Shown here: positions 1-36,032 of the stretch, piece by piece | Numbering within the stretch: the stretch's first letter is position 1 | Layout: every line of letters begins with the position of its first letter | Assembly: GCA_023474155.1 (NCBI GenBank) | Contig: JAMCYJ010000023.1 | Span: 1-36,968 of the forward strand | Length of the DNA: 36,968 nt | From: Candidatus Marsarchaeota archaeon | GTDB lineage: Archaea; Micrarchaeota; Micrarchaeia; Micrarchaeales; Micrarchaeaceae | Direction of reading: 5' to 3' | Notes under the pieces: generated by a model | What the model was told of the DNA's origin: nothing | Database searches by the model: none | The model's input: the letters and a program-made list of their open reading frames with translations, nothing else | Position numbers and translations under genes: made by a program

Positions 1-165
1 GTCATAAATCGCAAACCAATACTTGAAAAAGCTAGGGAGGGGCACTCCCGACGTAATGCCTCTGGAGGCGTAGTCCATACATTCCAAAAGGGAATGCAAA
101 CTACGCCAGTGAATCAGGAACATACTCCGCCTCGTTTCGATGCAGAGGAAGCCCGCACGCTTTAG
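1..165 (+). other. Unassigned GC-rich segment at the window edge: either the 3' end of a truncated CDS (frame 1 open to TAG at 163-165) or part of a structured RNA
   Basis: Frame +1 is open from nt 1 to TAG 163-165 (...KPILEKAREGHSRRNASGGVVHTFQKGMQTTPVNQEHTPPRFDAEEARTL*). A minus-strand frame is also open across 1-195. Five of the six Arg codons in the + frame are CGN, whereas neighbouring genes prefer AGR. Nested hairpins lie at 35-49, 67-107 (with an inner one at 80-96), 59-64/143-148 and 152-172. Confidence 0.3.
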
Positions 166-195
166 CGGCGGGAGGATGTCACACGTGTTGATTCT

Positions 196-1119
196 ATGGT
201 TGAAAAGGTTGTTATTCTCGGATCAGGCCCCGCAGGGCTCACTGCCGCGCTGTATGCCGCAAGAGACGATTTAAAGCCGATTATAATAGGCGGTTTCAAT
301 GCGGGAGGCCAGCTTATGCTGACGACAGAGGTCGAAAATTATCCAGGATTTCCAAGCGGGATCTACGGCGCGGAATTGATTGACAGCATGAGGAAGCAGG
401 CCGAAAAATTCGGGGCGGTATTCGTAAATGACGATGTTAAAGAAGTTGATTTCAATTCAAGGCCTTTCAAATTGAAGACCGCGGCCGCGAAGTTCGAGGC
501 GCATTCGGTTGTCGTCGCAACAGGCGCATCTGCCAGATGGCTCGGCATCGAGTCAGAAAAAAAATTCATCGGAAAAGGGGTCAGTTCATGCGCGACATGC
601 GACGGGGCGTTTTTTAAGAATAAAGAAGTTGCCATAGTGGGGGGCGGGGACACTGCCCTGGAGGACGCGATATTCCTCGCGAAGTTTGCCACGAAAGTGC
701 ATATAATCCACAGGAGGGACGAATTCAAGGCGAGCAGACTGGCGCAGGACAGGGCAAGGGCGAATCCGAAAATAGATTTTATCCTAAACAGCGAAGTGAC
801 AGAGATTCTGGGCAGCGGCTCGGTCACCGGTCTGAGAGTCGCGAACAACAAAACAAATGAGACGTCGGACATCAGAGTTGACGGGCTGTTTGTCGCGATA
901 GGATATAAGCCGAATACAGGTTTCTTGAAAGGGGCTCTGGATCTTGACGAACAAGGCTATATTGTCGTTTCCGATGAGGTGAAGACAAAAATCGACGGCA
1001 TTTTTGTTGCAGGCGATGTCGCAGACAAAATATACAAGCAGGCAGTCGTCGCAGCAGGCGCAGGAGCAAAGGCCGCCCTCGAAGTAAGGTTTTATCTCCA
1101 AAGAAACGACTTGATGTGA
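196..1119 (+). CDS. trxB: Thioredoxin-disulfide reductase
   Basis: 307 aa. Has the FAD Rossmann motif GSGPAG, the redox-active CATC (VSSCATCDGAFF), the NADPH site GGGDTALEDA, and C-terminal FVAGDV. ATG start. Confidence 0.95.
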   Translation: MVEKVVILGSGPAGLTAALYAARDDLKPIIIGGFNAGGQLMLTTEVENYPGFPSGIYGAELIDSMRKQAEKFGAVFVNDDVKEVDFNSRPFKLKTAAAKFEAHSVVVATGASARWLGIESEKKFIGKGVSSCATCDGAFFKNKEVAIVGGGDTALEDAIFLAKFATKVHIIHRRDEFKASRLAQDRARANPKIDFILNSEVTEILGSGSVTGLRVANNKTNETSDIRVDGLFVAIGYKPNTGFLKGALDLDEQGYIVVSDEVKTKIDGIFVAGDVADKIYKQAVVAAGAGAKAALEVRFYLQRNDLM

Positions 1120-1152
1120 TCTGCTGCAAAAAGACCAGAGCAAAAACTATTA

Positions 1153-2016
1153 ATGGAACAGTACTATAAAATTGCCCAAAATGCTCTTGATAAAATGGTT
1201 AGAGAATACAGGTTCGCGGGCGTATTTTATTCCAAAAACAAAGTAATGCTTGCGGATGCCGCAAAGAGCTTAATTGCAAATGCGATTGTTGATCCAGCAA
1301 TAAAAAGCGGATACGCTTATGTTTCCCCGCATGCAGGATACGCGTATTCCGGTTCAACAGCAGCATGCACTTACAAAGCGCTGTCGCAAAACAAGGACCT
1401 CGGCAGGATCGATACTATAATAATTGTAGGCCCTAACCATACAGGCGACGGGGAGAATATTTCAGTTTCGGCGCAGGACTGGGAAACGCCGCTTGGGGTA
1501 CTGAAAAATAACACACCCCTTTCAAGGCAGATTGCGTCCAAAGGAATAAAAGTTGATGAATCAGCGCATTTAGAGGAGCATTCTATAGAGGTCCAACTGC
1601 CATTTTTAAATGTCATCGCGCCAACAAAAAAATTCTGTTTTATTTGTATGAGGGATCAATCGGTAGAGTCCAGTGCCAAACTGTCAGATTCGATAATAGC
1701 CGCATCGAGAAAACTGAACTCGAATGCGGTCGTGATAGCGAGCTCTGATTTCGACCACTACGAACCAAGGCGCGAGGCGGCGAGGAAGGACGGGTTGCTC
1801 ATCAAGGCATTGTCTGGATTAGATTATGAAGGGTTCGACAGGCTTGCGTCCGAATTAAATGACAGCGCGTGCGGGGTCGGTCCCGTGATGACTGCGCTTT
1901 TGTTTGCAAAGTCAATGGGTGCAACAAAATCCCTGCTGCTCAGATATTCTGATTCTAGTAGTGTGACAAAAGATTATTCGAGCGTTGTCGCATATGCATC
2001 AATAGTTTTTATATAG
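1153..2016 (+). CDS. MEMO1-family protein (AmmeMemoRadiSam system protein B)
   Basis: 287 aa with the family motifs SPHAGYAYSG, VGPNHTG, EHSIEVQLPFL and SSDFDHY. Confidence 0.85.
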   Translation: MEQYYKIAQNALDKMVREYRFAGVFYSKNKVMLADAAKSLIANAIVDPAIKSGYAYVSPHAGYAYSGSTAACTYKALSQNKDLGRIDTIIIVGPNHTGDGENISVSAQDWETPLGVLKNNTPLSRQIASKGIKVDESAHLEEHSIEVQLPFLNVIAPTKKFCFICMRDQSVESSAKLSDSIIAASRKLNSNAVVIASSDFDHYEPRREAARKDGLLIKALSGLDYEGFDRLASELNDSACGVGPVMTALLFAKSMGATKSLLLRYSDSSSVTKDYSSVVAYASIVFI

Positions 2017-2084
2017 CCTAATAAATGCCTGCGATGCGTAAAAAGTTTAATATATTTCGCCTGCAATGTATTATTCGTGATTGC

Positions 2085-2234
2085 ATGGCAAAAAAACAAA
2101 AAGACGTGGTTTGCGGAATGGATGTGAATGAAAGTTCGAAGTTCAAGTCAGAGCACAACAAGCAAAAGTATTATTTCTGCAGCGAATCGTGCAAGAAGGA
2201 ATTCGACAGCAAGCCTAAGAAATACGCGCACTGA
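2085..2234 (+). CDS. YHS/TRASH-type metal-binding domain protein
   Basis: VVCGMDV...KYYFCSESCKKEF is the YHS-domain pattern. The ORF-track start at 2025 adds an unlikely N-terminus; the ATG at 2085 (MAKKQKDVVCGM) is preferred. Confidence 0.7.
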   Translation: MAKKQKDVVCGMDVNESSKFKSEHNKQKYYFCSESCKKEFDSKPKKYAH

Positions 2235-2303
2235 GCGCGCATTTCGTTTTTTATCGGATTTAAAATAAGGTTTAAAAACAATTGCATCTTATTTAATATT
2301 GCC

Positions 2304-2341
2304 TTTTATTTTATTATTTTATTTTTATTTTATTATTTTAA
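2304..2341. repeat. AT-only tandem repeat, 19-nt unit x2 (ttttattttattattttat)
   Basis: Read directly: unit 1 at 2304-2322, unit 2 at 2323-2341, 18/19 identical. Lies about 50-90 nt upstream of the polyprenyl synthase ATG. Confidence 0.8.
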
Positions 2342-2366
2342 GCATAGTTTATTTACGCATAGTTTA
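2342..2366 (+). promoter_or_regulatory. Direct 10-bp repeat gcatagttta-N5-gcatagttta upstream of the polyprenyl synthase gene
   Basis: Exact copies at 2342-2351 and 2357-2366, 27-51 nt upstream of ATG 2393. A regulatory role is inferred from position only. Confidence 0.3.
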
Positions 2367-2392
2367 GATGCGGTGTCAGGATAGCTGATAAA

Positions 2393-3409
2393 ATGAATTT
2401 CAAAGAATACGTCGAGCAGCACAGGCAAAAAGTGTACGAAAAAATCTGCAGGTATTTTCCGGACAAAGATCCTGTGGAGCACTACAGGATATCCAAGGAA
2501 TATTCCGACAGGCAGGGCAGCTACAGGAGGCCGGGGCTTCTCCTGCTTACTGGCCAGATGTTCGGGGCGGAGATCAACGACCTATTGCTTCCTGCTGCGG
2601 CGATGCAGCTTTCAGAGGACTGGATACTTACCCACGACGACATAGAGGACCATTCGAGTATGAGGCGGGGAAAGGAATCCCTGAATAAGCTCTACGGGAT
2701 GGAAGTCGCGCTGAATGCAGGCGATGCAGGCCATATAATAATGTGGAAAATGCTCAAAGACTATGTTGTCAGCAGCAGCGTAGGCTCGCGGTTGTATGAC
2801 AAGTTTTACGACATAGTTGAAAAAACAGTCGAAGGCCAGTTTCTGGACATAAATTTTATTTACAACAAAAAAACGCTGAACGGCGCCGACGAGGACCTGT
2901 ATTTCAAGATTATAAACAGCAAGACTTGCTATTATACTGTCTACGGGCCGATGCAGCTCGGTGCGATAGTCGCGGGCGCCGACGAGGAAATGCTTAGGGC
3001 GCTTGAGGACATAGGCAGGCCCGCAGGAGTTTCTTTTCAGATAGCCGACGACCTTCTCGACATGACCGCGGACGAGAAAGTATTCGGGAAGCAGAAGCAC
3101 GGGGATTTATACGAGGGAAAGATAACGCTTATAATACTGGACGCCTATAGGAAAGCGTCCCAGGAGGAAAAGGACGCGATAAACAGGATTTATGCGAAGC
3201 AAAGGGAGGAAAAGACAGAGCAGGACATAGGCTTTCTTCTGCAGATCATAGACAAGTACAGGAGCTTAGAGGCAGTAATGAAAATAGGGGAGGAATACAC
3301 TGAAAAGGCAAAGAAAAACATAGAGGAGCATTCGCGCAGTTTACCGGACAACGAATACACAAAAATACTGATGTCTGCTATAACCGAGCTTTATTCGAGA
3401 AACAAATGA
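2393..3409 (+). CDS. Polyprenyl (geranylgeranyl-type) diphosphate synthase
   Basis: 338 aa. First Asp-rich motif THDDIEDHS, second Asp-rich motif IADDLLD, and GKQKHGD in between. This is the typical trans-isoprenyl diphosphate synthase architecture. Confidence 0.9.
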   Translation: MNFKEYVEQHRQKVYEKICRYFPDKDPVEHYRISKEYSDRQGSYRRPGLLLLTGQMFGAEINDLLLPAAAMQLSEDWILTHDDIEDHSSMRRGKESLNKLYGMEVALNAGDAGHIIMWKMLKDYVVSSSVGSRLYDKFYDIVEKTVEGQFLDINFIYNKKTLNGADEDLYFKIINSKTCYYTVYGPMQLGAIVAGADEEMLRALEDIGRPAGVSFQIADDLLDMTADEKVFGKQKHGDLYEGKITLIILDAYRKASQEEKDAINRIYAKQREEKTEQDIGFLLQIIDKYRSLEAVMKIGEEYTEKAKKNIEEHSRSLPDNEYTKILMSAITELYSRNK

Positions 3410-3473
3410 CCGCGCGCAAATGCCGAGCAGATACAGGATATTTAAATGTTAAATATTTTTAATCGTTGATATT

Positions 3474-4037
3474 ATGAAACTTACATGGATGATTGGAGGC
3501 GAACAGGGAAGCGGCGTTGACACCGCATCAGGTCTATTCGGAAAGGCAGTGTCAGGGGCAGGCTATTACCTTTTCGGGAACAGGGAATACTACTCGACAA
3601 TAAAGAACAGGCACAGCTATTTCGAACTGTCGATAAGCGACAAAAAAATAAGCAGCATTTCAGAGCGCTACGATATAATAACCACTTTCGACGCAGAGAC
3701 GATATTCCAGCATTTTCAGCAGGCAAAAGCCTATTTTATATATTCCGAAACAAGTATTGGAAAAGGCATAGACGCGGCGCTTAGCCTCGAACCTGAAACC
3801 AAAAAGGAGATTATTGGCTTCATGAGCAAGCACGCCATTGAACCGACAGTGCAAGGGGTCGTCGATTATCTCAAGGCCGCGGGCATAGCCACGATACCCG
3901 TCAACTACGAGCAGATATTGAGGGAAATATCCGCAGAGCTGTCGATAAACATAACTCTTGCGGAAAAGGCACTCAACACTATAGCGGCGTCCGTTTCCTT
4001 TGCCCTGCTGGTGCGGAAAAGGCACTCAACACTATAG
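3474..4037 (+). CDS. OFOR gamma-domain fragment (upstream part of the split alpha gene)
   Basis: MKLTWMIGGEQGSGVDTASGLFGKAVSGAGYYLFGNREYYSTIKNRHSYF matches the N-terminus of Sulfolobus-type OFOR a-subunits. It ends in the out-of-frame tail VRKRHSTL*, which is encoded by repeat copy 2. Confidence 0.75.
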   Translation: MKLTWMIGGEQGSGVDTASGLFGKAVSGAGYYLFGNREYYSTIKNRHSYFELSISDKKISSISERYDIITTFDAETIFQHFQQAKAYFIYSETSIGKGIDAALSLEPETKKEIIGFMSKHAIEPTVQGVVDYLKAAGIATIPVNYEQILREISAELSINITLAEKALNTIAASVSFALLVRKRHSTL

Positions 4038-4064
4038 CGGCGTCCGTTTCCTTTGCCCTGCTGG
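3959..4064. repeat. Perfect 53-bp tandem duplication (2 copies) inside the OFOR alpha gene
   Basis: tgcggaaaaggcactcaacactatagcggcgtccgtttcctttgccctgctgg occurs at 3959-4011 and again, identically, at 4012-4064. Flanking bases do not extend the repeat. Confidence 0.97.
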
Positions 4065-4132
4065 GCCTTGATAAGCAGTACCTTGCAGATGCGATTTCGA
4101 ACACGTTCTCGAAAAAGCCCGACGCAATACCG

Positions 4133-5419
4133 ATGAATATGCTCGCCGCCGAGAAGGCATCCCTTCTCGTAAAGCCGGTGTTCAATCTCAAGCCGATCAA
4201 AAAGCAGGAAATGGTGCAGATTGACGGAAACACGGCCGCCGCGATCGGAAAAATAGCAGGAGGGATAGGATTCCAGAGCTATTATCCGATAACTCCTGCG
4301 AGCGATGAAAGCGTTTACCTTGAGGCTAACCAAATAGTCGATACAGTTGTTGACGGCGCCAAGTCCTCAAGGCCTGTGGTCGTGGTGCAGACAGAGGACG
4401 AGATTTCAGCGATAGGCATGGCGATAGGCGCGGGCCTTGCCGGCGTCAGGTCTGCAACCGCGACATCCGGGCCGGGATTCGCGCTCATGGCGGAGGCGCT
4501 CAGCTGGGCAGGCCAGACCGAAAGCCCTGTTGTTGTCACATATTATGTAAGGGGCTCGCCGTCCACTGGCCTCCCGACAAGGAGCGGCCAGTCGGACCTG
4601 AAATTCGCCGCGAACGTCGGCCACGGTGAGTTTCCGAAGATCGTGCTTGCTAGCGGCGACCACGCAGAGGTCTTCCACGACGCGATACTGGCATTCAACC
4701 TTGCGGAGGCATACCAGACGCCTGTCATACACTTAATCGAGAAGTCGATAGCAAACACTTACTCCACGCTCGACAAGGCGGAACTCGATTATTCCAAGGC
4801 AAAGATCGAGAGAGGCGCGCTAGTGCGTATGGATCCTGGCAAGGACTATAACAGGTATTCCCTTGAAAACGGGCCTGTCTCGCCCAGGTCCCCCCTTGGA
4901 TCATCAGTCGCATGGTACTCGGGCGACGAACACAGCGAGTCCGGGCACATCTCTGAAAATCCGACAAACAGGACAGCGATGTACGAGAAAAGGATGAAAA
5001 AGCTCGACCTGGCCGCCAAGGAAATCCCGCAAGATGAAAAACTGAATGTTTTCGGGGACAGCGGCGCTGAAAACGCCGTCATAACTTTCGGTTCGCCAAA
5101 GGGCGCGCTCAAAGACATTTTGGAGGACCTTTTATCAGAGGATAAAATAAAGCTGCAGGTTGTCCAAGTCAGGTTCTTTAGCCCGTTTCCTGCGGAGGAG
5201 CTGGCAAAGATACTCCAAAACAAGAAAAGGGTGATAGACGTCGAGAACAACTACACCGCGCAGCTCGGTTCGTTTGTCAGCGAGCACCTGCATATAACCC
5301 CTACTCATTTCATACTCAAGTGGAATGGCAGGCAGATGAATACGGACGAGCTTAGGGACGCGATAAAGCGCGCGGTCGGCAACGACGAGAAAAGGATAGT
5401 CCTTAACAGCGGGATGTGA
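4133..5419 (+). CDS. OFOR alpha-domain fragment (downstream part of the split alpha gene)
   Basis: 428 aa with a pyruvate/2-oxoacid:ferredoxin oxidoreductase alpha core (YPITPASDE, TSGPGFALM, FSPFP). The frame is already open from 4013 (AEKALNTIAASVSFALLGLDKQYL...). The first ATG is at 4133. Confidence 0.75.
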   Translation: MNMLAAEKASLLVKPVFNLKPIKKQEMVQIDGNTAAAIGKIAGGIGFQSYYPITPASDESVYLEANQIVDTVVDGAKSSRPVVVVQTEDEISAIGMAIGAGLAGVRSATATSGPGFALMAEALSWAGQTESPVVVTYYVRGSPSTGLPTRSGQSDLKFAANVGHGEFPKIVLASGDHAEVFHDAILAFNLAEAYQTPVIHLIEKSIANTYSTLDKAELDYSKAKIERGALVRMDPGKDYNRYSLENGPVSPRSPLGSSVAWYSGDEHSESGHISENPTNRTAMYEKRMKKLDLAAKEIPQDEKLNVFGDSGAENAVITFGSPKGALKDILEDLLSEDKIKLQVVQVRFFSPFPAEELAKILQNKKRVIDVENNYTAQLGSFVSEHLHITPTHFILKWNGRQMNTDELRDAIKRAVGNDEKRIVLNSGM

Positions 5420-5592
5420 ATATGCGGCAGAGAGCCATGCAAATGATTGAAAATTAATGCAAACCAGTGAAACCAATGGAAACGCAAATGCAGAAAAGCA
5501 GCAACGACGGACTTGTCAGGCCAAGGCATTGGAAGAGCGGTTTCAGTTTTACTTTAATAAAAATGCAGAAAATCAGCAGCAACGAAATCCGC

Positions 5593-6267
5593 ATGCCGGG
5601 GAGCGGCCATTCCGGCGATTCAAAAAACATAAAGGGCATAATATTCGACATCGGCGGCGTAATAATACACTATCCCGCGGAAGCATACTACAAGCAGCTG
5701 TCAAATAAATTCAATATCCCACTTAGCACCATAGCCGCCGCTACTGATCCTGTAAGACACGAGCTCGAGCTAGGGCGCATAAACCTGCATGAAATGCTCA
5801 GAAAGGTCTCTGCGAGCCTTAACATAAAAATCGTAGATTCGGAATTCATAAAAAGCTTCAAGGATTTTGCAAGGACAGATCATGAAATGGTACGCCTGAT
5901 AAAGAATCTGTCAGGCAACTACAACGTATACCTGCTTACAAACATCAGCAAGGCAGGATTTGCAATGTGCGACAAAGAGCTAAGGCAGAACGGATGCAGA
6001 TTCGACGGCAAGTTCGCATCGTGCTACCTTCATATGCGCAAGCCGGATCCGCGCATATACCATCACGTCCTTCGTGAAACAGGGTTAAAGCCCCAGGAGA
6101 CTATTTTCATAGACGACAAGAAAAAAAACATCGAGGCCGCATCCGCGATAGGGATGAATGGGATAGTGTTCAGCAATATGAGCCAGCTGATAGAAGACTT
6201 TAAGAAGCTCGGTATAACAATAACTGCGGATGCATGCAATGAAAAGAAAAAGAAAAAAGAAAAGTAA
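5593..6267 (+). CDS. HAD-superfamily phosphatase (YihX-like, DxG variant of motif I)
   Basis: Motif I is IIFDIGGVII. Also has LLTNISK, KPDPRIY and FIDDKKKNIEAA. The start is uncertain: in-frame ATGs at 5467, 5563 and 5593, with 5593 giving the usual short N-terminus. The C-terminus is a Lys tail (NEKKKKKEK). Confidence 0.8.
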   Translation: MPGSGHSGDSKNIKGIIFDIGGVIIHYPAEAYYKQLSNKFNIPLSTIAAATDPVRHELELGRINLHEMLRKVSASLNIKIVDSEFIKSFKDFARTDHEMVRLIKNLSGNYNVYLLTNISKAGFAMCDKELRQNGCRFDGKFASCYLHMRKPDPRIYHHVLRETGLKPQETIFIDDKKKNIEAASAIGMNGIVFSNMSQLIEDFKKLGITITADACNEKKKKKEK

Positions 6268-6312
6268 AAATAAAATAAGTAAAAGAAAAAGAAAAAATAA
6301 CCTCCTGATAAG

Positions 6313-6533
6313 ATGAATGCGAAAAACCAAAAAGAGAAACAAAAAGAAGAGCGCAAAATCTTTGAAAAAACAAAAAAAGAAAGCCAAAAACCAATGGCAA
6401 TAGTTATTGGAGATTTTCAGTTTAGCAGCTGCTGCACAGAGGAGATAAAGTCTGCACTGAGAAAACTGCAGGAATCCCCAGCGTCCAATCAGAAAGAGCA
6501 GAAGAAAACAGAAAACAGGCAGGCAAAATATTT

Positions 6534-6549
<16 letters not shown>
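6313..6549 (+). CDS. Hypothetical Lys/Glu-rich small protein (doubtful)
   Basis: A 78-aa ORF embedded in A-rich low-complexity DNA. Only the central part (MAIVIGDFQFSSCCTEEIKSALRKLQES) has ordinary composition. No recognisable motif. Confidence 0.25.
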
Positions 6550-7500
<951 letters not shown>

Positions 7501-7626
7501 TTTTTAGCGCTCATTGTAAAAATTTAAACGCGGTTGCCGCTTTCATTCAAAAATGCAAATGGACAAAAATAAACGTATAAATCCATAACCCCTATAAAAA
7601 GATTGTATAAAAATAAGGTCAATGAT

Positions 7627-8874
7627 ATGGAAGAAAAAAAGAATGTTGAGGATTTCCTAAAAAAGCTGATGGCAGGCGAATTGAAAATACACGAACTCTC
7701 GAAGTATGTTGATGAAAATACAGCTGCGGAAATCCGCAGAAGATATCTCTCAGAGAAATACAGTCTTAATAACAATAGCTTTACGCATGTTGAACGCGCA
7801 TCCATAGATATGGAGGATACTGCAAAGCGCAATATAAGCAATCTTATCGGTGCGATTCAGATACCGCTCGGATTTATCGAAATAAATATCAAAGGCCAAT
7901 ACGCGATAGGGCAGAGCGCGGTATTTTTGGCAACGACAGAAGGCAAGCTAGTAGACGGCATAGGACGGGCTGCCAAAGCGCTGCAGGAGTCAGGCATTTC
8001 AACGAGAATACTCAAAGACGAAATGACTAGAAGCGTGATTGTAAATGCCAAGACGCTGGATGATGCATATAAGATAAAGGAGTACGTGCTAAAAAATAGT
8101 GACGAGATTAAAAAGTCTTTTTCAGAGTCCAGCAAACATTTGGAATTAAAAAGCATATCGACATATGTGATAGGAAAAACAGTCTTTATAAGGTACGGTG
8201 CGACGACAGGCGCTGCGATGGGCATGAATATGATTACAATAGGCGCGCATACTGCAACGCTGAAGACGCTTGAGGATCTTAAGAAAAAAGGAATAAATGC
8301 AGACTTTTTTACAGAAAGCGGAAACATGTGCATTGACAAAAAGCCAGGGCATATAAACCAGATTTTAGGCAGAGGAATTTCAATATCTGCAGAAGCGATA
8401 ATTAAAAGGGAAACAGTTGAAAAATACTTTAAAGTGACTCCTGAGAAGATAGCGAAGATGAACTATTACAAAAATTATATAGGATCCAGCATGGGCGGCG
8501 CAATAGGGAACAACGCGCATATAGCAAATATACTTGCTGCTATTTTTATCGCGTATGGGCAGGATCTTGCGCAGATTGTTGATGGTGCAAGCGGATATGA
8601 TAATATAGAAGTAACAGACAATGGTGATTTATACATATCAATACTCCTGCCGGCACTTGAAATAGGTACTTTTGGTGGGGGTACAGTAAGGGAAACGCAA
8701 AAGGAAGTGCTTATGGCTTCAGGAGTATACGGGGATAATGACCACAAAGGAGAGACCAAGTATAAATTCGCTGAGATAATAGCAGCAGCAGTGCTGGCAG
8801 GAGAATTAAATCTCATTGCTGTTCAAGCTGCACAGGAACTGTCAAGTTCCCATGCGTCTCTAAAAAGAGGATAG
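7627..8874 (+). CDS. hmgA: Class I HMG-CoA reductase
   Basis: NLIGAIQIPLG, TTGAAMGMNM, GNMCIDKKP and GTFGGGT are class I HMGR motifs. The ORF-track start at 7603 is a TTG. The ATG at 7627 follows TATA-like tataaaaa at 7593-7600. Confidence 0.92.
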   Translation: MEEKKNVEDFLKKLMAGELKIHELSKYVDENTAAEIRRRYLSEKYSLNNNSFTHVERASIDMEDTAKRNISNLIGAIQIPLGFIEINIKGQYAIGQSAVFLATTEGKLVDGIGRAAKALQESGISTRILKDEMTRSVIVNAKTLDDAYKIKEYVLKNSDEIKKSFSESSKHLELKSISTYVIGKTVFIRYGATTGAAMGMNMITIGAHTATLKTLEDLKKKGINADFFTESGNMCIDKKPGHINQILGRGISISAEAIIKRETVEKYFKVTPEKIAKMNYYKNYIGSSMGGAIGNNAHIANILAAIFIAYGQDLAQIVDGASGYDNIEVTDNGDLYISILLPALEIGTFGGGTVRETQKEVLMASGVYGDNDHKGETKYKFAEIIAAAVLAGELNLIAVQAAQELSSSHASLKRG

Positions 8875-16807: not shown

Positions 16808-17857
16808 ATGGTTGAAATTACGAGCCAGGATGACGAGGAGCTGCTCAAGTTCATTGAAAATTCAAAGCCCAAAATATATGTTATAGGAACAGGAGGCAGC
16901 GGAAGCAATACGATAAGCAGGCTTTTCAACATAGGCGTGCAGGGATGCGATTTGGTATCCATGAACACCGATGCCGCGCATCTTGTAAAGACGAAAGCGG
17001 ACAGAAAACTTCTTCTAGGCAAAAAACTAACAAGGGGCCTCGGCGCAGGAAGCGACCTCAAGATCGGCGCGGAGGCGGCAAAGGAATCCAAGGACGAGAT
17101 AAAGCACCTTATAAACGACGCGCAGCTTGTTTTCGTGACATGCGGGCTCGGCGGAGGGACAGGCACAGGCTCGGTTTCCGTCATAGCGCACGAGGCAAAG
17201 GAGCTCGGAGCGCTGACAATAGGGATTGTGACCCTTCCTTTTTCAAGCGAAGGCGCGACGAGGATGAAAAACGCGCTCGAAGGGCTCAACAGGCTGAAAA
17301 GGGAGGTGGATACGCTTATCGTGATAAGAAACGACAAGCTTCTTTCAATCGCATCAGACCTTCCGTTAAACATGGCATTCAGGGTATCCGACGAGGTTCT
17401 CGCAAGCGCGACAAAGGGCATTGTTGAAATGGTTACGAAGCCAGGAATGGTAAACATAGATTTTGCAGATCTTACTGCGACGCTTAGGGACGCGGGCTAT
17501 GGAGTTATAGGAAACGGCGAGGGCCTTGCGACTTCAAGAGACGCGGATCATGCCCGCATCGCGCTTGAGAACGCGATAAAAAGCCCGCTGCTTGACGTCG
17601 ACCTGTCAAACGCGAAGAAAGCATTGGTCAATATTGTCGGGGGGGAAAACCTGACGCTGAGGCAGGCCGAAGCAGTATTCAAGGACATTTCAGCAAGGAT
17701 AGACCCTACTGCATTGCTCAAGTGGGGCGCGAGAATCGAGCCCGACATGCAGAAAGACCTTATTCGCGTGATGATTGTCGTGAGCGGCGTGGATTTTCCA
17801 GACTACGGCCAGCAGATAGAGCCGAATGAGGAAATAGACCTCGACGAATTAATGTAA
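16808..17857 (+). CDS. ftsZ: Cell division GTPase FtsZ
   Basis: GTGGSGSNTISRL, NTDAAHL, and the tubulin signature GLGGGTGTGSVSVIA. 349 aa. Confidence 0.95.
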   Translation: MVEITSQDDEELLKFIENSKPKIYVIGTGGSGSNTISRLFNIGVQGCDLVSMNTDAAHLVKTKADRKLLLGKKLTRGLGAGSDLKIGAEAAKESKDEIKHLINDAQLVFVTCGLGGGTGTGSVSVIAHEAKELGALTIGIVTLPFSSEGATRMKNALEGLNRLKREVDTLIVIRNDKLLSIASDLPLNMAFRVSDEVLASATKGIVEMVTKPGMVNIDFADLTATLRDAGYGVIGNGEGLATSRDADHARIALENAIKSPLLDVDLSNAKKALVNIVGGENLTLRQAEAVFKDISARIDPTALLKWGARIEPDMQKDLIRVMIVVSGVDFPDYGQQIEPNEEIDLDELM

Positions 17858-23904: not shown

Positions 23905-24232
23905 GGATCTTAATTCAATAAAGTATTCCTTTTTATGATATTTATAATTTTTTATTTATGTTTTGATTTGTATTATCCCGAAATAAGTTTCTATCGGTAA
24001 AAGAATATATACGCCCGTCTGATTTTTGTCATCTACTAAAAGCATGAACTTATTGAAGTCCATGTTTAGAAATACGCCTATCCCATTGAATTTTTCCCTC
24101 AACTACTTAACCACCTCTAACAAATTATTGCATAAGTTATAAAGCAAGAAAGATAGAGGAAATGCCTTGCAGATTTAAACAATTATTGGGTAAAACTGCA
24201 GTGGAGAAAGAAGCAAATACGTAACTGGTAAT

Positions 24233-24766
24233 TTAATATTTGAGCAGCGTAAAGAAATCGTATCCTTTAAGTTTTTCTCTTCCTTTCAGCGCGCTCAATT
24301 CTATAAGTGCGCATATGCCCGCAATTTTTGCATCTAATTTTTCAAGGAGTTCTATGCTTGCTGCAAGTGTTCCGCCTGTTGCAAGCACATCGTCAATTAT
24401 CAAAACCTTGCTGTCCTTTTCGACAGCATCGCTGTGCATCTCAATTGTCTGCTTTTCAGCGTATTCAAGGCTGTAAGAAACTTCAACAGTTTTGTATGGC
24501 AGTTTTCCTTTTTTCCTTATCGGTATAAACCCTTTTTTCAGCTTGTATGCAAGCGCCGAGCCTATAATGAAGCCACGCGCATCAATCCCTGCTATATAGT
24601 CTATATCCTTTCCGTAAAGACTGACATTTATGTAGTCTATGCAAAGCGCAAACAAGTCCTTGTCCTTTAGCAACGGCGTTATGTCCCTGAACATGACCCC
24701 TTTTTTAGGGTAATTCTCTATGTCCCGTATCTTTGACCTCAGTAGTTTTTCTATATCCTCGTTCAT
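24233..24766 (-). CDS. apt: Adenine phosphoribosyltransferase
   Basis: KIRDIENYPKKGVMFRDITPLL and the PRPP-binding motif VLIIDDVLATGGTLAA. ATG 24766 is preferred over the ORF-track TTG at 24802. Confidence 0.92.
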   Translation of the reverse strand: MNEDIEKLLRSKIRDIENYPKKGVMFRDITPLLKDKDLFALCIDYINVSLYGKDIDYIAGIDARGFIIGSALAYKLKKGFIPIRKKGKLPYKTVEVSYSLEYAEKQTIEMHSDAVEKDSKVLIIDDVLATGGTLAASIELLEKLDAKIAGICALIELSALKGREKLKGYDFFTLLKY

Positions 24767-24816
24767 TTCAATGCCTTTAATTGTTAATTTCAAATCGAGC
24801 AAACTTCTCCATAGGA

Positions 24817-24969
24817 ACTTTTTTCTTGATTGAACTTCTTCCTAAGAAGCCCAAAGACTTTTTTCTTGATTGAACTTCTTCCTAAGAAGCCCAAAGACTT
24901 TTTTCTTGATTGAACTTCTTCCTAAGAAGCCCAAAGACTTTTTTCTTGATTGAACTTCTTCCTAAGAAG
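24817..24969. repeat. Perfect 40-bp tandem repeat, about 3.8 copies, each unit containing a hairpin
   Basis: The unit cttgattgaacttcttcctaagaagcccaaagactttttt occurs at 24825-24864, 24865-24904 and 24905-24944 with no mismatch. A partial copy follows at 24945-24969, and 8 nt of unit tail precede at 24817-24824. Confidence 0.97.
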
Positions 24970-24970
24970 T

Positions 24971-27220
24971 TCAGTCGCAGAGGCTGAACCCGCACTTCGG
25001 GCACGTGAAGCAGCCTTCGCCCGCGATCATTCCTGTTCCGCATTCAGGGCACTGCTTCTCGTTCGCAGCTGAAATCACGTATGTGGCCGCGTCGAAGTTG
25101 GTGATGCCCGTCTTGCCTCCATGCCTTTCTTTCAGGCTTTTCAAGGTTGTCTGGTTCTGCTCGTTTACCATGTTAAGCACCTGATTTGATTTGCTTTGGT
25201 CCCTGTATACTGTTATGCCTTTGCACCCGAGTTCATATGCGAGTTTGTACGCGTTTTCAATGTCCTGGGGGGTTGCGCGGCTCGGGAAATTTATCGTTTT
25301 TGAAACCGCATTGTCAACATGCCTCTGGAATGCGGCCTGCATTTTTACATGCCACTCCGGCGCGATGTCGTGCGCGGTCACGAAAAGCTTTCTTATTTTT
25401 TCAGGAATCTCATTGACATCCTGTATCGATATTTTCCCTGCAAGTTTCTTCATGAGGTCGTCCGAGTAAAAATTATTCTCAAGCGCGTATCTCTCGAATT
25501 CGTTATTGACTTCTATAAGATTCGAGCCGAGCGACTCCGCGACGTTCCTTAAGTAGACTACGGAGAATATAGGCTCTATGCCCTGCGATACCCCGTTCGA
25601 GATTATGCTTATCGTCCCTGTCGGCGCTATTGTTGTGACTGTGGAGTTCCTGAGAGGCTTATATCCTAGCTTGTGCCATATGCTGTTTTTGAATTCGGGG
25701 AACGCCCCGCGCTCCTCCGCAAGCTCGTGGCTCATCTGGCGCGCGTTGTTAGTTATGAATGACATCACATTCTCGGCAAGCGCAAGCGCCTCGTTGCTGT
25801 CGTATCTTATGCCAAGCTTTATCAGCATGTCTGCCCAGCCCATGACGCCTATGCCTATCCTCCTTATAGAGCGAGTCATCTCCTCTATTTCTTTGATGGG
25901 ATACGTGTTTGCGTCAATTACGTCGTCGAGGAACCTTATTCCCAGACGCGTAATGCGTCTCAGCTCGTCCCAGTCCACCTCGAAATGGCTGTTCATGGGC
26001 TTTAGCATATTCGCAAGGTTTATCGAGCCTAGGTTGCAGGAGTCGTACGCATACAGCGGCTGCTCGCCGCACGGATTGGTAGATTCAATAGGCCCGAGCC
26101 TAGGCACAGGGTTTGAATAGCTCGAGTTTATCCTGTCTATAAACACCAGGCCGGGGTCGCCGGTCTTCCATGCCATCGTCACGACGAGGTTCCAGACCGC
26201 CCTTGCATTGAGTTTGCCGACCGCCTTGCCGTTTCTCGGATTTATTAAGTCGTACTGCCTGTTTGCGCTGAGCGCGTTCATGAATTCCTTTGTCACGGCG
26301 ATAGAGAGATTGAAGTTCCTGAGCGTGTTTTCATTCTCCTTTGCCACAATGAAGTTGAGTATATCCGGGTGGTCTATGCGGAGTATTCCCATGTTGGCGC
26401 CCCTGCGCTTTCCGCCTTGTTTGATCTGCTCTGTCGCGGAATCAAATATCTTCATGAATGAGATCGGGCCAGAAGCAACGCCGCCGGTCGTATTCACGGT
26501 GTCGTTTGACGGTCTGAGCCTTGAAAATGAGAATCCTGTGCCTCCCCCGCTTTTATGCACTACCGCGGCGTACTTGACCGCATCAAATATCCCGTTTATC
26601 GAGTCTGCAATAGGGATTACAAAGCACGCGCTCAGCTGGCCAAGTTTCGTACCCGCGTTCATCAATGTCGGCGAATTTGGCATGAACTTGAAACTTGTCA
26701 TTGCGCTGTAGAATTCCCTTGAGATCTCCATTATCTGTTTATCCTCTTTGCCGTACTTCTTTTCGACTCCTGCAATCGAGTTTGAAACCCTCTCGAACAG
26801 CTGCTTCGGTGTTTCTATGATCTTGCCGTTTTCATTTTTAAGCAGGTATCTTGCAGAAAGTATTATAAGCGAGTTGATAGGCAGCTTCAGATCGTCAGAA
26901 ATTCCAAGTGAAGCCTTGAAGATCCTGACTTGCGCGTGTTTGTGCCTGTAGAGTATATATGCCTTTGCTACATTGGCGTCCTCCTCCATGAGCTCCTTTT
27001 CCACAAGGTCTTGGATCTCTTCAACATGAATCTCCTCTACTTTTAGCTTATTTATTGTTCCGGCGACTTTTTTTGCGATCGTCCCCGCAGCCATTTCATT
27101 TTTTTCTTCAGGGCTTTTTATATAAACATTAGAAAATGCGCGCATCACTGCATTCTTGATTTTGTTCTCATCAAAAGGCACCCGTTGCCCGTCTCTCTTA
27201 ATAACATTCCTGATACCCAT
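24971..27220 (-). CDS. nrdJ: Class II (adenosylcobalamin-dependent) ribonucleoside-triphosphate/diphosphate reductase with ATP-cone and C-terminal zinc ribbon
   Basis: ATP-cone VIKRDGQRVPFDENKI, active-site TNPCGEQPL, and C-terminal CPECG...CFTCPKCG. Candidate starts are ATG 27220, GTG 27229 and TTG 27232. Confidence 0.93.
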   Translation of the reverse strand: MGIRNVIKRDGQRVPFDENKIKNAVMRAFSNVYIKSPEEKNEMAAGTIAKKVAGTINKLKVEEIHVEEIQDLVEKELMEEDANVAKAYILYRHKHAQVRIFKASLGISDDLKLPINSLIILSARYLLKNENGKIIETPKQLFERVSNSIAGVEKKYGKEDKQIMEISREFYSAMTSFKFMPNSPTLMNAGTKLGQLSACFVIPIADSINGIFDAVKYAAVVHKSGGGTGFSFSRLRPSNDTVNTTGGVASGPISFMKIFDSATEQIKQGGKRRGANMGILRIDHPDILNFIVAKENENTLRNFNLSIAVTKEFMNALSANRQYDLINPRNGKAVGKLNARAVWNLVVTMAWKTGDPGLVFIDRINSSYSNPVPRLGPIESTNPCGEQPLYAYDSCNLGSINLANMLKPMNSHFEVDWDELRRITRLGIRFLDDVIDANTYPIKEIEEMTRSIRRIGIGVMGWADMLIKLGIRYDSNEALALAENVMSFITNNARQMSHELAEERGAFPEFKNSIWHKLGYKPLRNSTVTTIAPTGTISIISNGVSQGIEPIFSVVYLRNVAESLGSNLIEVNNEFERYALENNFYSDDLMKKLAGKISIQDVNEIPEKIRKLFVTAHDIAPEWHVKMQAAFQRHVDNAVSKTINFPSRATPQDIENAYKLAYELGCKGITVYRDQSKSNQVLNMVNEQNQTTLKSLKERHGGKTGITNFDAATYVISAANEKQCPECGTGMIAGEGCFTCPKCGFSLCD

Positions 27221-27372
27221 GCCATGCACCAAAAAAAAGTTGCAAGATTAATTGGCAAATACAATTTAAATAAATATTGCTTAAAAATTAAATACAAAAA
27301 TGGCCATCTGCCTCATGCTATATTTTTAAGCATTGACTTTGATAGGCATGGCGCGGCAATCCATAACAGTGC

Positions 27373-35916: not shown

Positions 35917-36032
35917 TGTCAAACGGTAATAGAGATAAGGAAACGCCCGATCCCATTCCGAACTCGGAAGCTAAGCTTATTTTCGATACGTGTGTACTGC
36001 TTTAGAGCGGGAAATCGTGTTGCTGTTTGGCA
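35917..36032 (+). rRNA. rrf: 5S ribosomal RNA (stand-alone)
   Basis: The core cccgatcccattccgaactcggaagctaag matches the universal 5S loop B / helix III region. The terminal helix tgtcaaacgg/ctgtttggca has 10 bp with 2 G.U. About 116 nt. Confidence 0.88.

Follow-up and report, generated by a model that had tools for sequence, protein, structure and literature searches.

The gene for the a-subunit of a 2-oxoacid:ferredoxin oxidoreductase (OFOR) is intact in the archaeal population represented by the 36,968-base stretch of DNA analyzed here (the window), and the perfect 53-bp tandem duplication that breaks this gene into two open reading frames is private to this record. We consider the duplication to be probably an assembly or joining artefact: it has the anatomy of a known local assembly error, and nothing here is new biology. 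It matters chiefly as a warning about the quality of the record: annotation should treat the OFOR a-subunit gene as intact, and pyruvate/2-oxoglutarate:ferredoxin oxidoreductase should not be counted as lost or split when the metabolism of the lineage is reconstructed.

By direct string comparison, window positions 3959-4011 and 4012-4064 carry identical 53-mers, and TRF describes the same interval (3959-4064) as an array of period 53 with 2.0 copies, 100% matches and no indels, so that the perfect 53-bp tandem duplication named in the initial annotation holds up under both approaches. By chance alone, a sequence of 36,968 bases would be expected to contain ~2e-27 such exact 53-nt tandem pairs. 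Identity between the copies ends exactly at both unit borders and not one base further: on the 5′ side, copy 1 is preceded by …AACTCT as compared with the …GCTGG that closes the unit, and on the 3′ side, copy 2 is followed by GCCTTG as compared with the TGCGGA that opens it. The borders of the repeat therefore show no microhomology. The two copies meet at …CCCTGCTGG/TGCGGAAAAGG… (…GCTGG/TGCGG…), a junction also written as CCTTTGCCCTGCTGG/TGCGGAAAAGGCACT, and the corresponding single-unit context reads AACATAACTCT/TGCGG…GCTGG/GCCTTGATAAG, with single-copy junctions …AACTCT/TGCGG… and …GCTGG/GCCTTG….

We found no further copy of any 12-mer or longer word from the duplicated region elsewhere in the window, and the DNA of this region folds into no structure beyond that of shuffled sequences (z = 0.87); a hairpin- or repeat-driven mechanism is thus not indicated. 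The duplication site carries neither an N run nor any other scaffold mark. An exact 44-nt piece of the unit had no match in genome_contigs or in JGI metagenome_contigs.

The consequences for the reading frames follow from where the first copy ends, namely 179 codons plus 1 nt into the ORF (coordinates of all features are collected in the table below). The upstream product, ORF1, consists of the 179 native N-terminal residues of domain III followed by eight out-of-frame residues (VRKRHSTL) and a stop codon, exactly the frameshifted ending that had been described initially, and is gamma-like, matching positions 2-138 of the 173 in the Pfam POR (PF01558) profile. The downstream product, ORF2, contains the tail of domain III, domain I (POR_N, with the YPITP motif) and domain II (PFOR_II). 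Its frame is open from 3842, but the first ATG, GTG or TTG occurs only at 4133, and since codons 180-202 of the repaired gene lie 5′ of this start codon, the corresponding residues would be in neither product. Deleting one copy yields a single ORF of 630 codons, the product length that had been predicted for this repair.

Neither ORF1 nor ORF2 had an identical product in exact-product look-ups. A protein search with ORF1 returned only two distant short proteins, and among its 278 candidates there was no second VRKRHSTL tail, which is weak negative evidence. One further protein (P0132) resembled a free-standing gamma subunit but, being encoded on a contig of only 946 bp, is probably a fragment.

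Features of the interrupted OFOR a-subunit gene and its partner gene, in window coordinates
Feature	Position	Strand	Description
ORF1	3474-4037	+	187 aa, ending ...SFALLVRKRHSTL and stop
Copy 1 of 53-bp unit	3959-4011	+	Native-frame residues ~163-179 (AEKALNTIAASVSFALL) plus first base of codon 180
Copy 2 (extra copy) of 53-bp unit	4012-4064	+	Causes +2 frameshift; absent from contigs L006 and L069 and from all relatives
Codons 180-202 of repaired gene	4065-4132	+	GLDKQYLADAISNTFSKKPDAIP; in ORF2 frame, upstream of any start codon
ORF2	4133-5419	+	428 aa; ATG at 4133 is Met203 of repaired protein
OFOR b-subunit, intact	6601-7500	+	TPP_enzyme_C and PFO_beta_C; Cys at 13, 16, 47 and 196

With one copy removed, the gene encodes a typical a-subunit of the two-subunit OFOR type, in which a gamma-like domain III is joined to alpha domains I-II. 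Enzymes of this family carry out CoA-dependent oxidative decarboxylation of 2-oxoacids with ferredoxin as the acceptor, which is the putative activity here. Pfam places POR at residues 12-211 of the repaired protein, POR_N (PF01855) at 241-487 and PFOR_II (PF17147) at 514-608. The domain order III-I-II within one polypeptide is found in the one-copy sequence and in the single-copy contig L069 (see below), and not in the window as written, where it is divided between two ORFs.

The repaired product also aligns over residues 1-629 with the a-subunits of StOFOR1 and StOFOR2 from Sulfolobus (Sulfurisphaera) tokodaii (PDB 5b48 and 5b46; PMC5020499), with query residues 1-629 matching 1-626 of chain 5b48_A (E 1.1e-211) and 2-629 matching 3-627 of chain 5b46_A (E 2.1e-209), at ~51-52% identity (BLASTP, P0050 and P0066) and with no gap across the repaired junction. 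StOFOR1 carries Thr256a within YPITP and the substrate-carboxylate-binding Arg344a (PMC5020499), and the repaired protein has YPITP at 253-257 and PTR, with the catalytic Arg, at 350-352, aligned to these StOFOR1 motifs. The initial annotation had recognized a two-subunit archaeal OFOR a-subunit of about 630 aa and had proposed aligning the repaired ORF to fused a-subunits; the Pfam domains agree with that identification, and the alignment is colinear from end to end. The S. tokodaii enzymes differ from the present case in having an uninterrupted gene and a Sulfolobale host, whereas here a 53-bp duplication interrupts the gene and the host is an uncultured archaeon labelled Marsarchaeota or Micrarchaeota.

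The position of the break does not correspond to the domain junction at which the initial annotation had placed it. In the S. tokodaii structure, domain III spans residues 1a-228a, domain I 228a-500a and domain II 500a-627/628a (Yan et al. 2016, PMC5020499). Because the alignment with StOFOR1 is ungapped up to the break and domain III ends at 228, the break, which follows residue 179, lies inside domain III (1-228), 49 residues from its end, as is also reflected in the incomplete POR match of ORF1. It cuts through an LLGL motif (178-181), in a neighborhood where a 35-sequence alignment shows G180, L186 and F194 to be invariant and L179 and L181 to be nearly so. We further used the AlphaFold model of a 90%-identical ortholog with the same numbering (mean pLDDT 88.7). 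In this model the break coincides with the predicted end of a helix at 160-179, and the predicted domain III helices 183-193 and 200-212, followed by a linker, all lie downstream of it, with the first predicted strand of domain I beginning at 229.

The decisive evidence on the state of the gene in the source population comes from Logan contigs derived from two different sequencing runs, which we located via exact-product look-ups of neighboring genes. Contig L006 (SRR10276728, 4417 bp) matches window positions 153-4011 at 99.92% and 4012-4622 at 100%, and the same 53 bases of this contig (3807-3859) match both window copies, corresponding to one copy within an uninterrupted ORF. Contig L069 (SRR10244963, 3036 bp) likewise carries a single copy and agrees with the window at 99.8-99.96% over 3476-4011 and 4012-6564; its product of 629 residues equals the repaired protein except for I138V. 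Neither contig contains the 40-mer that spans the junction between the copies. Because Logan assembles its contigs with k=31, less than the 53-bp unit, a duplication present at appreciable frequency would make a cycle in the graph and break the contig at the unit; L006 and L069 instead both pass straight through the site. That both contigs are single-copy and run through the site establishes the intact gene as the normal state of the population.

The two Logan runs agree with each other, and not with the window, at two positions: 3885 (A vs. G, the I138V difference) and 4942 (C vs. A). At the remaining variable sites, the window agrees with either one run or the other. These private alleles suggest that the window probably stems from a third sample or from a different strain mixture. 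Literature searches on SRR10244963, SRR10276728 and ERZ27233565 found nothing.

Comparison with more distant relatives gave a uniform picture. The nearest cluster comprises 12 proteins, one of which NCBI names Candidatus Marsarchaeota; all are 630 aa long and share ~90-91% identity with the repaired protein. The best-matching GTDB and JGI loci are colinear with it over residues 1-630, and homologs among the matches listed at E≤1e-50 are fused proteins of 618-642 aa. At the DNA level, four related loci (L001-L004) align with a clean 53-nt gap opposite one copy, and in relatives at 68-91% identity the site holds normal coding sequence, present once. The initial annotation had named orthologs naturally split at another position as a point against fission; we found no split ortholog, all relatives being fused at about 618-642 aa. 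Relative to the L001 ortholog, dN/dS is 0.042 over the whole gene, 0.059 for codons 1-179, 0.034 for codons 180-202 and 0.036 for codons 203-630. No part of the gene thus appears to be under relaxed constraint, including the stretch that a split would discard, and such strong purifying selection on every part implies that any disruption is either very recent or not biological.

The public labels of the near relatives conflict (L008-L011, P0121), with Candidatus Marsarchaeota given in one NCBI protein record and Candidatus Micrarchaeota in several MAG titles; related GTDB genomes are likewise labelled Micrarchaeota. In a separate lineage at ~48% identity, an OFOR a-subunit gene (L147 4001-5098; GCA_041748595.1, JBGTCZ010000096.1) has an in-frame TAA after residue 158 (…ADAYK, stop, PLSVVERAKN…), and its cluster mates from JGI, ENA and Logan assemblies stop at 138 aa (…YLEKRE). 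This looks like a paralog that is decaying, or being split, reproducibly in nature.

As to how the extra copy entered the record, it most probably arose in silico rather than in the cell. For example, two pieces overlapping by 53 bases may have been placed end to end with the overlap left untrimmed, and the candidate steps at which this may have happened during sequence building are joining, gap-closing, merging or polishing. Overlap-length tandem duplications from abutted contigs are a known class of local assembly error, and an untrimmed overlap gives exact copies without microhomology, which slippage between short direct repeats usually would not. The present case resembles such errors in that the repeat is exact, is limited to two copies, lacks microhomology, has a length in the k-mer range and sits in an otherwise perfect conserved gene, and in that the duplicate is missing from the independent assemblies L006 and L069, whose flanks are 99.8-100% identical to the window. 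It differs from them in lacking the scaffold marks looked for above and in its length, as 53 is, to our knowledge, no default k, k-1 or k+1 of metaSPAdes, MEGAHIT or IDBA-UD. Moreover, every k-mer of a pure de Bruijn contig, including those at a junction, has to come from the reads, and an artefact would therefore need a post-graph step such as scaffolding, gap closing, merging or polishing. The artefact reading, one of those offered in the initial annotation, stays viable.

Several observations count against an artefact and speak for a real, very recent tandem duplication in the source strain or sample, which would have created a fresh a-subunit pseudogene that is not fixed in the wider population. 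The private SNPs at 3885 and 4942 mean that the window can represent a distinct strain, and a real allele could dominate in a third sample; a de Bruijn contig built with k>53 would report a read-supported duplication faithfully, and 53 is not known to match any common default k. The window also holds a second perfect tandem array (24817-24969), which raises the possibility that this genome has genuine repeats of this kind, and the reproducible truncation of OFOR a-subunit paralogs in several assemblies of an unrelated lineage indicates that natural loss of such genes happens. Identical copies, together with two gene halves that are otherwise undamaged, fit a very young event, and the gene could revert to its intact form by recombination or slippage between them. 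Set against this are the single copy in two independent assemblies of a population ~99.9% identical to the window, the lack of microhomology at the borders, the lack of any second OFOR visible in the 37-kb window that might compensate, and a dN/dS of ~0.04 with the gene intact in every relative, which makes a disrupting allele at consensus frequency unlikely a priori. On balance, we regard a real young duplication as possible but somewhat doubtful. Should reads confirm the duplication, the locus would offer a minor example of a core-metabolism gene in an uncultured archaeon carrying a very young loss-of-function allele that could potentially revert. The initial annotation had paired recent inactivation with phase variation, and only the former stays viable. 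A contingency locus that turns the enzyme on and off by repeat copy number would draw on the fact that gain or loss of 53 bp shifts the frame and is reversible in principle, but it is scarcely credible here: only one- and two-copy states are seen, the two-copy state in this record alone, relatives are single-copy without copy-number variation, and the unit is a long, non-repetitive coding sequence, unique in the window, in a region that folds no better than shuffled sequence.

A different biological reading takes the duplication as gene fission, in which a gamma-like polypeptide and a separate alpha polypeptide, translated anew from the ATG at 4133, would together form a working enzyme like the four-subunit OFORs. 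Four-subunit OFORs with a separate gamma subunit do exist, and the present locus resembles them in that ORF1 is gamma-like (POR) and ORF2 has the alpha domains (POR_N and PFOR_II); from Met203 onward ORF2 holds domains I and II complete, and its start is near those of stand-alone alpha subunits, with PDB chains 1yd7_A and 8ys5_A aligning from query residue ~210-227. We nonetheless judge fission to be very unlikely. Natural gamma subunits contain a complete POR domain. In ORF1, by contrast, the final ~35 positions of the profile are missing and the eight out-of-frame residues take their place, the break being inside domain III and splitting the LLGL motif. The 23 residues that would be lost between the two products (180-202) include three invariant ones (G180, L186 and F194) along with all of predicted helix 183-193, and their codons are constrained like the rest of the gene. 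Signals for initiation at 4133 are likewise missing: the AT content of the 50 nt upstream is 50%, the level of the coding background (48%), compared with 73% on average for the 37 other putative gene starts, many of which show AT-rich, TATA-like leaders, and no SD-like motif occurs within 18 nt of this ATG. No relative is split at this site, and among the tested neighbors (2393-8874) there is no gene for a delta subunit (2x[4Fe-4S] ferredoxin). The locus thus shows neither a complete gamma with a split at the III/I border, nor an independently initiated alpha, nor a delta gene, and the suggestion of the initial annotation that re-initiation could still give a working enzyme finds no support, given the loss of conserved residues, the missing start signals and the fused state of relatives. 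With a break in the interior of a domain and conserved residues lost, even a real duplication would be no evidence for subunit fission. That the duplication is real, that both ORFs are expressed and that a young split inside domain III still gives an active or partly active OFOR is, taken together, highly improbable; if true, the expressed split would show how multi-subunit and fused OFOR architectures interconvert.

Beyond the interrupted gene, the locus is that of an ordinary two-subunit enzyme. The b-subunit gene is intact, and the four cysteines of its product are candidate ligands of a single [4Fe-4S] cluster, matching the partner (domain VI) of a two-subunit OFOR; no Fer4 domain was found in the a-subunit, the b-subunit or the neighboring products, in keeping with the lack of an intramolecular ferredoxin domain V in this enzyme type. 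The gene order (polyprenyl synthase, OFOR a, HAD hydrolase, small ORF, OFOR b, HMG-CoA reductase) recurs in relatives at 90% and 74% protein identity, where the a-subunit genes have 630 and 632 codons. Among the ~38 ORFs in the window no further split gene is evident, and each of ten large ORFs scanned matches its Pfam family essentially end to end, which suggests that the record is otherwise base-accurate and the duplication its lone defect.

The spacer between the a and b genes (window 5467-6549) encodes the HAD-family hydrolase and the small Lys-rich ORF, the latter of 78 aa here and 54-73 aa in relatives, and corresponding spacers are found in relatives at 74-90% identity (L001 11962-12865; L002 8011-9021; L003 4321-5331). 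In S. tokodaii the a and b locus tags are close together (STK_23000 and STK_22980), whereas the HAD and Lys-rich ORFs intervene here. Just 5′ of the b-subunit gene lie two A-rich low-complexity tracts (6242-6297 and 6533-6589), the second of which contains a perfect 19-bp unit repeated 2.5 times (6536-6583), and three Logan contigs (L069, L070 and L005) all start or stop at these tracts.

The second perfect array, at 24817-24969, consists of a 40-bp unit (ACTTTTTTCTTGATTGAACTTCTTCCTAAGAAGCCCAAAG) repeated 3.8 times at 100% identity and containing a CTTCTT/AAGAAG palindrome. It lies in the spacer between the start of an adenine phosphoribosyltransferase-like gene (24233-24802, minus strand) and the stop of a class II-like ribonucleotide reductase gene (24971-27232, minus strand), and could be either a real VNTR or a mis-counted graph loop; the sole neighboring Logan contig, L072, ends at 23998, short of the array. 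The window additionally encodes FtsZ (16808-17857), HMG-CoA reductase and a GGPP-type polyprenyl synthase, as well as a 5S rRNA (35919-36031) and four tRNAs.
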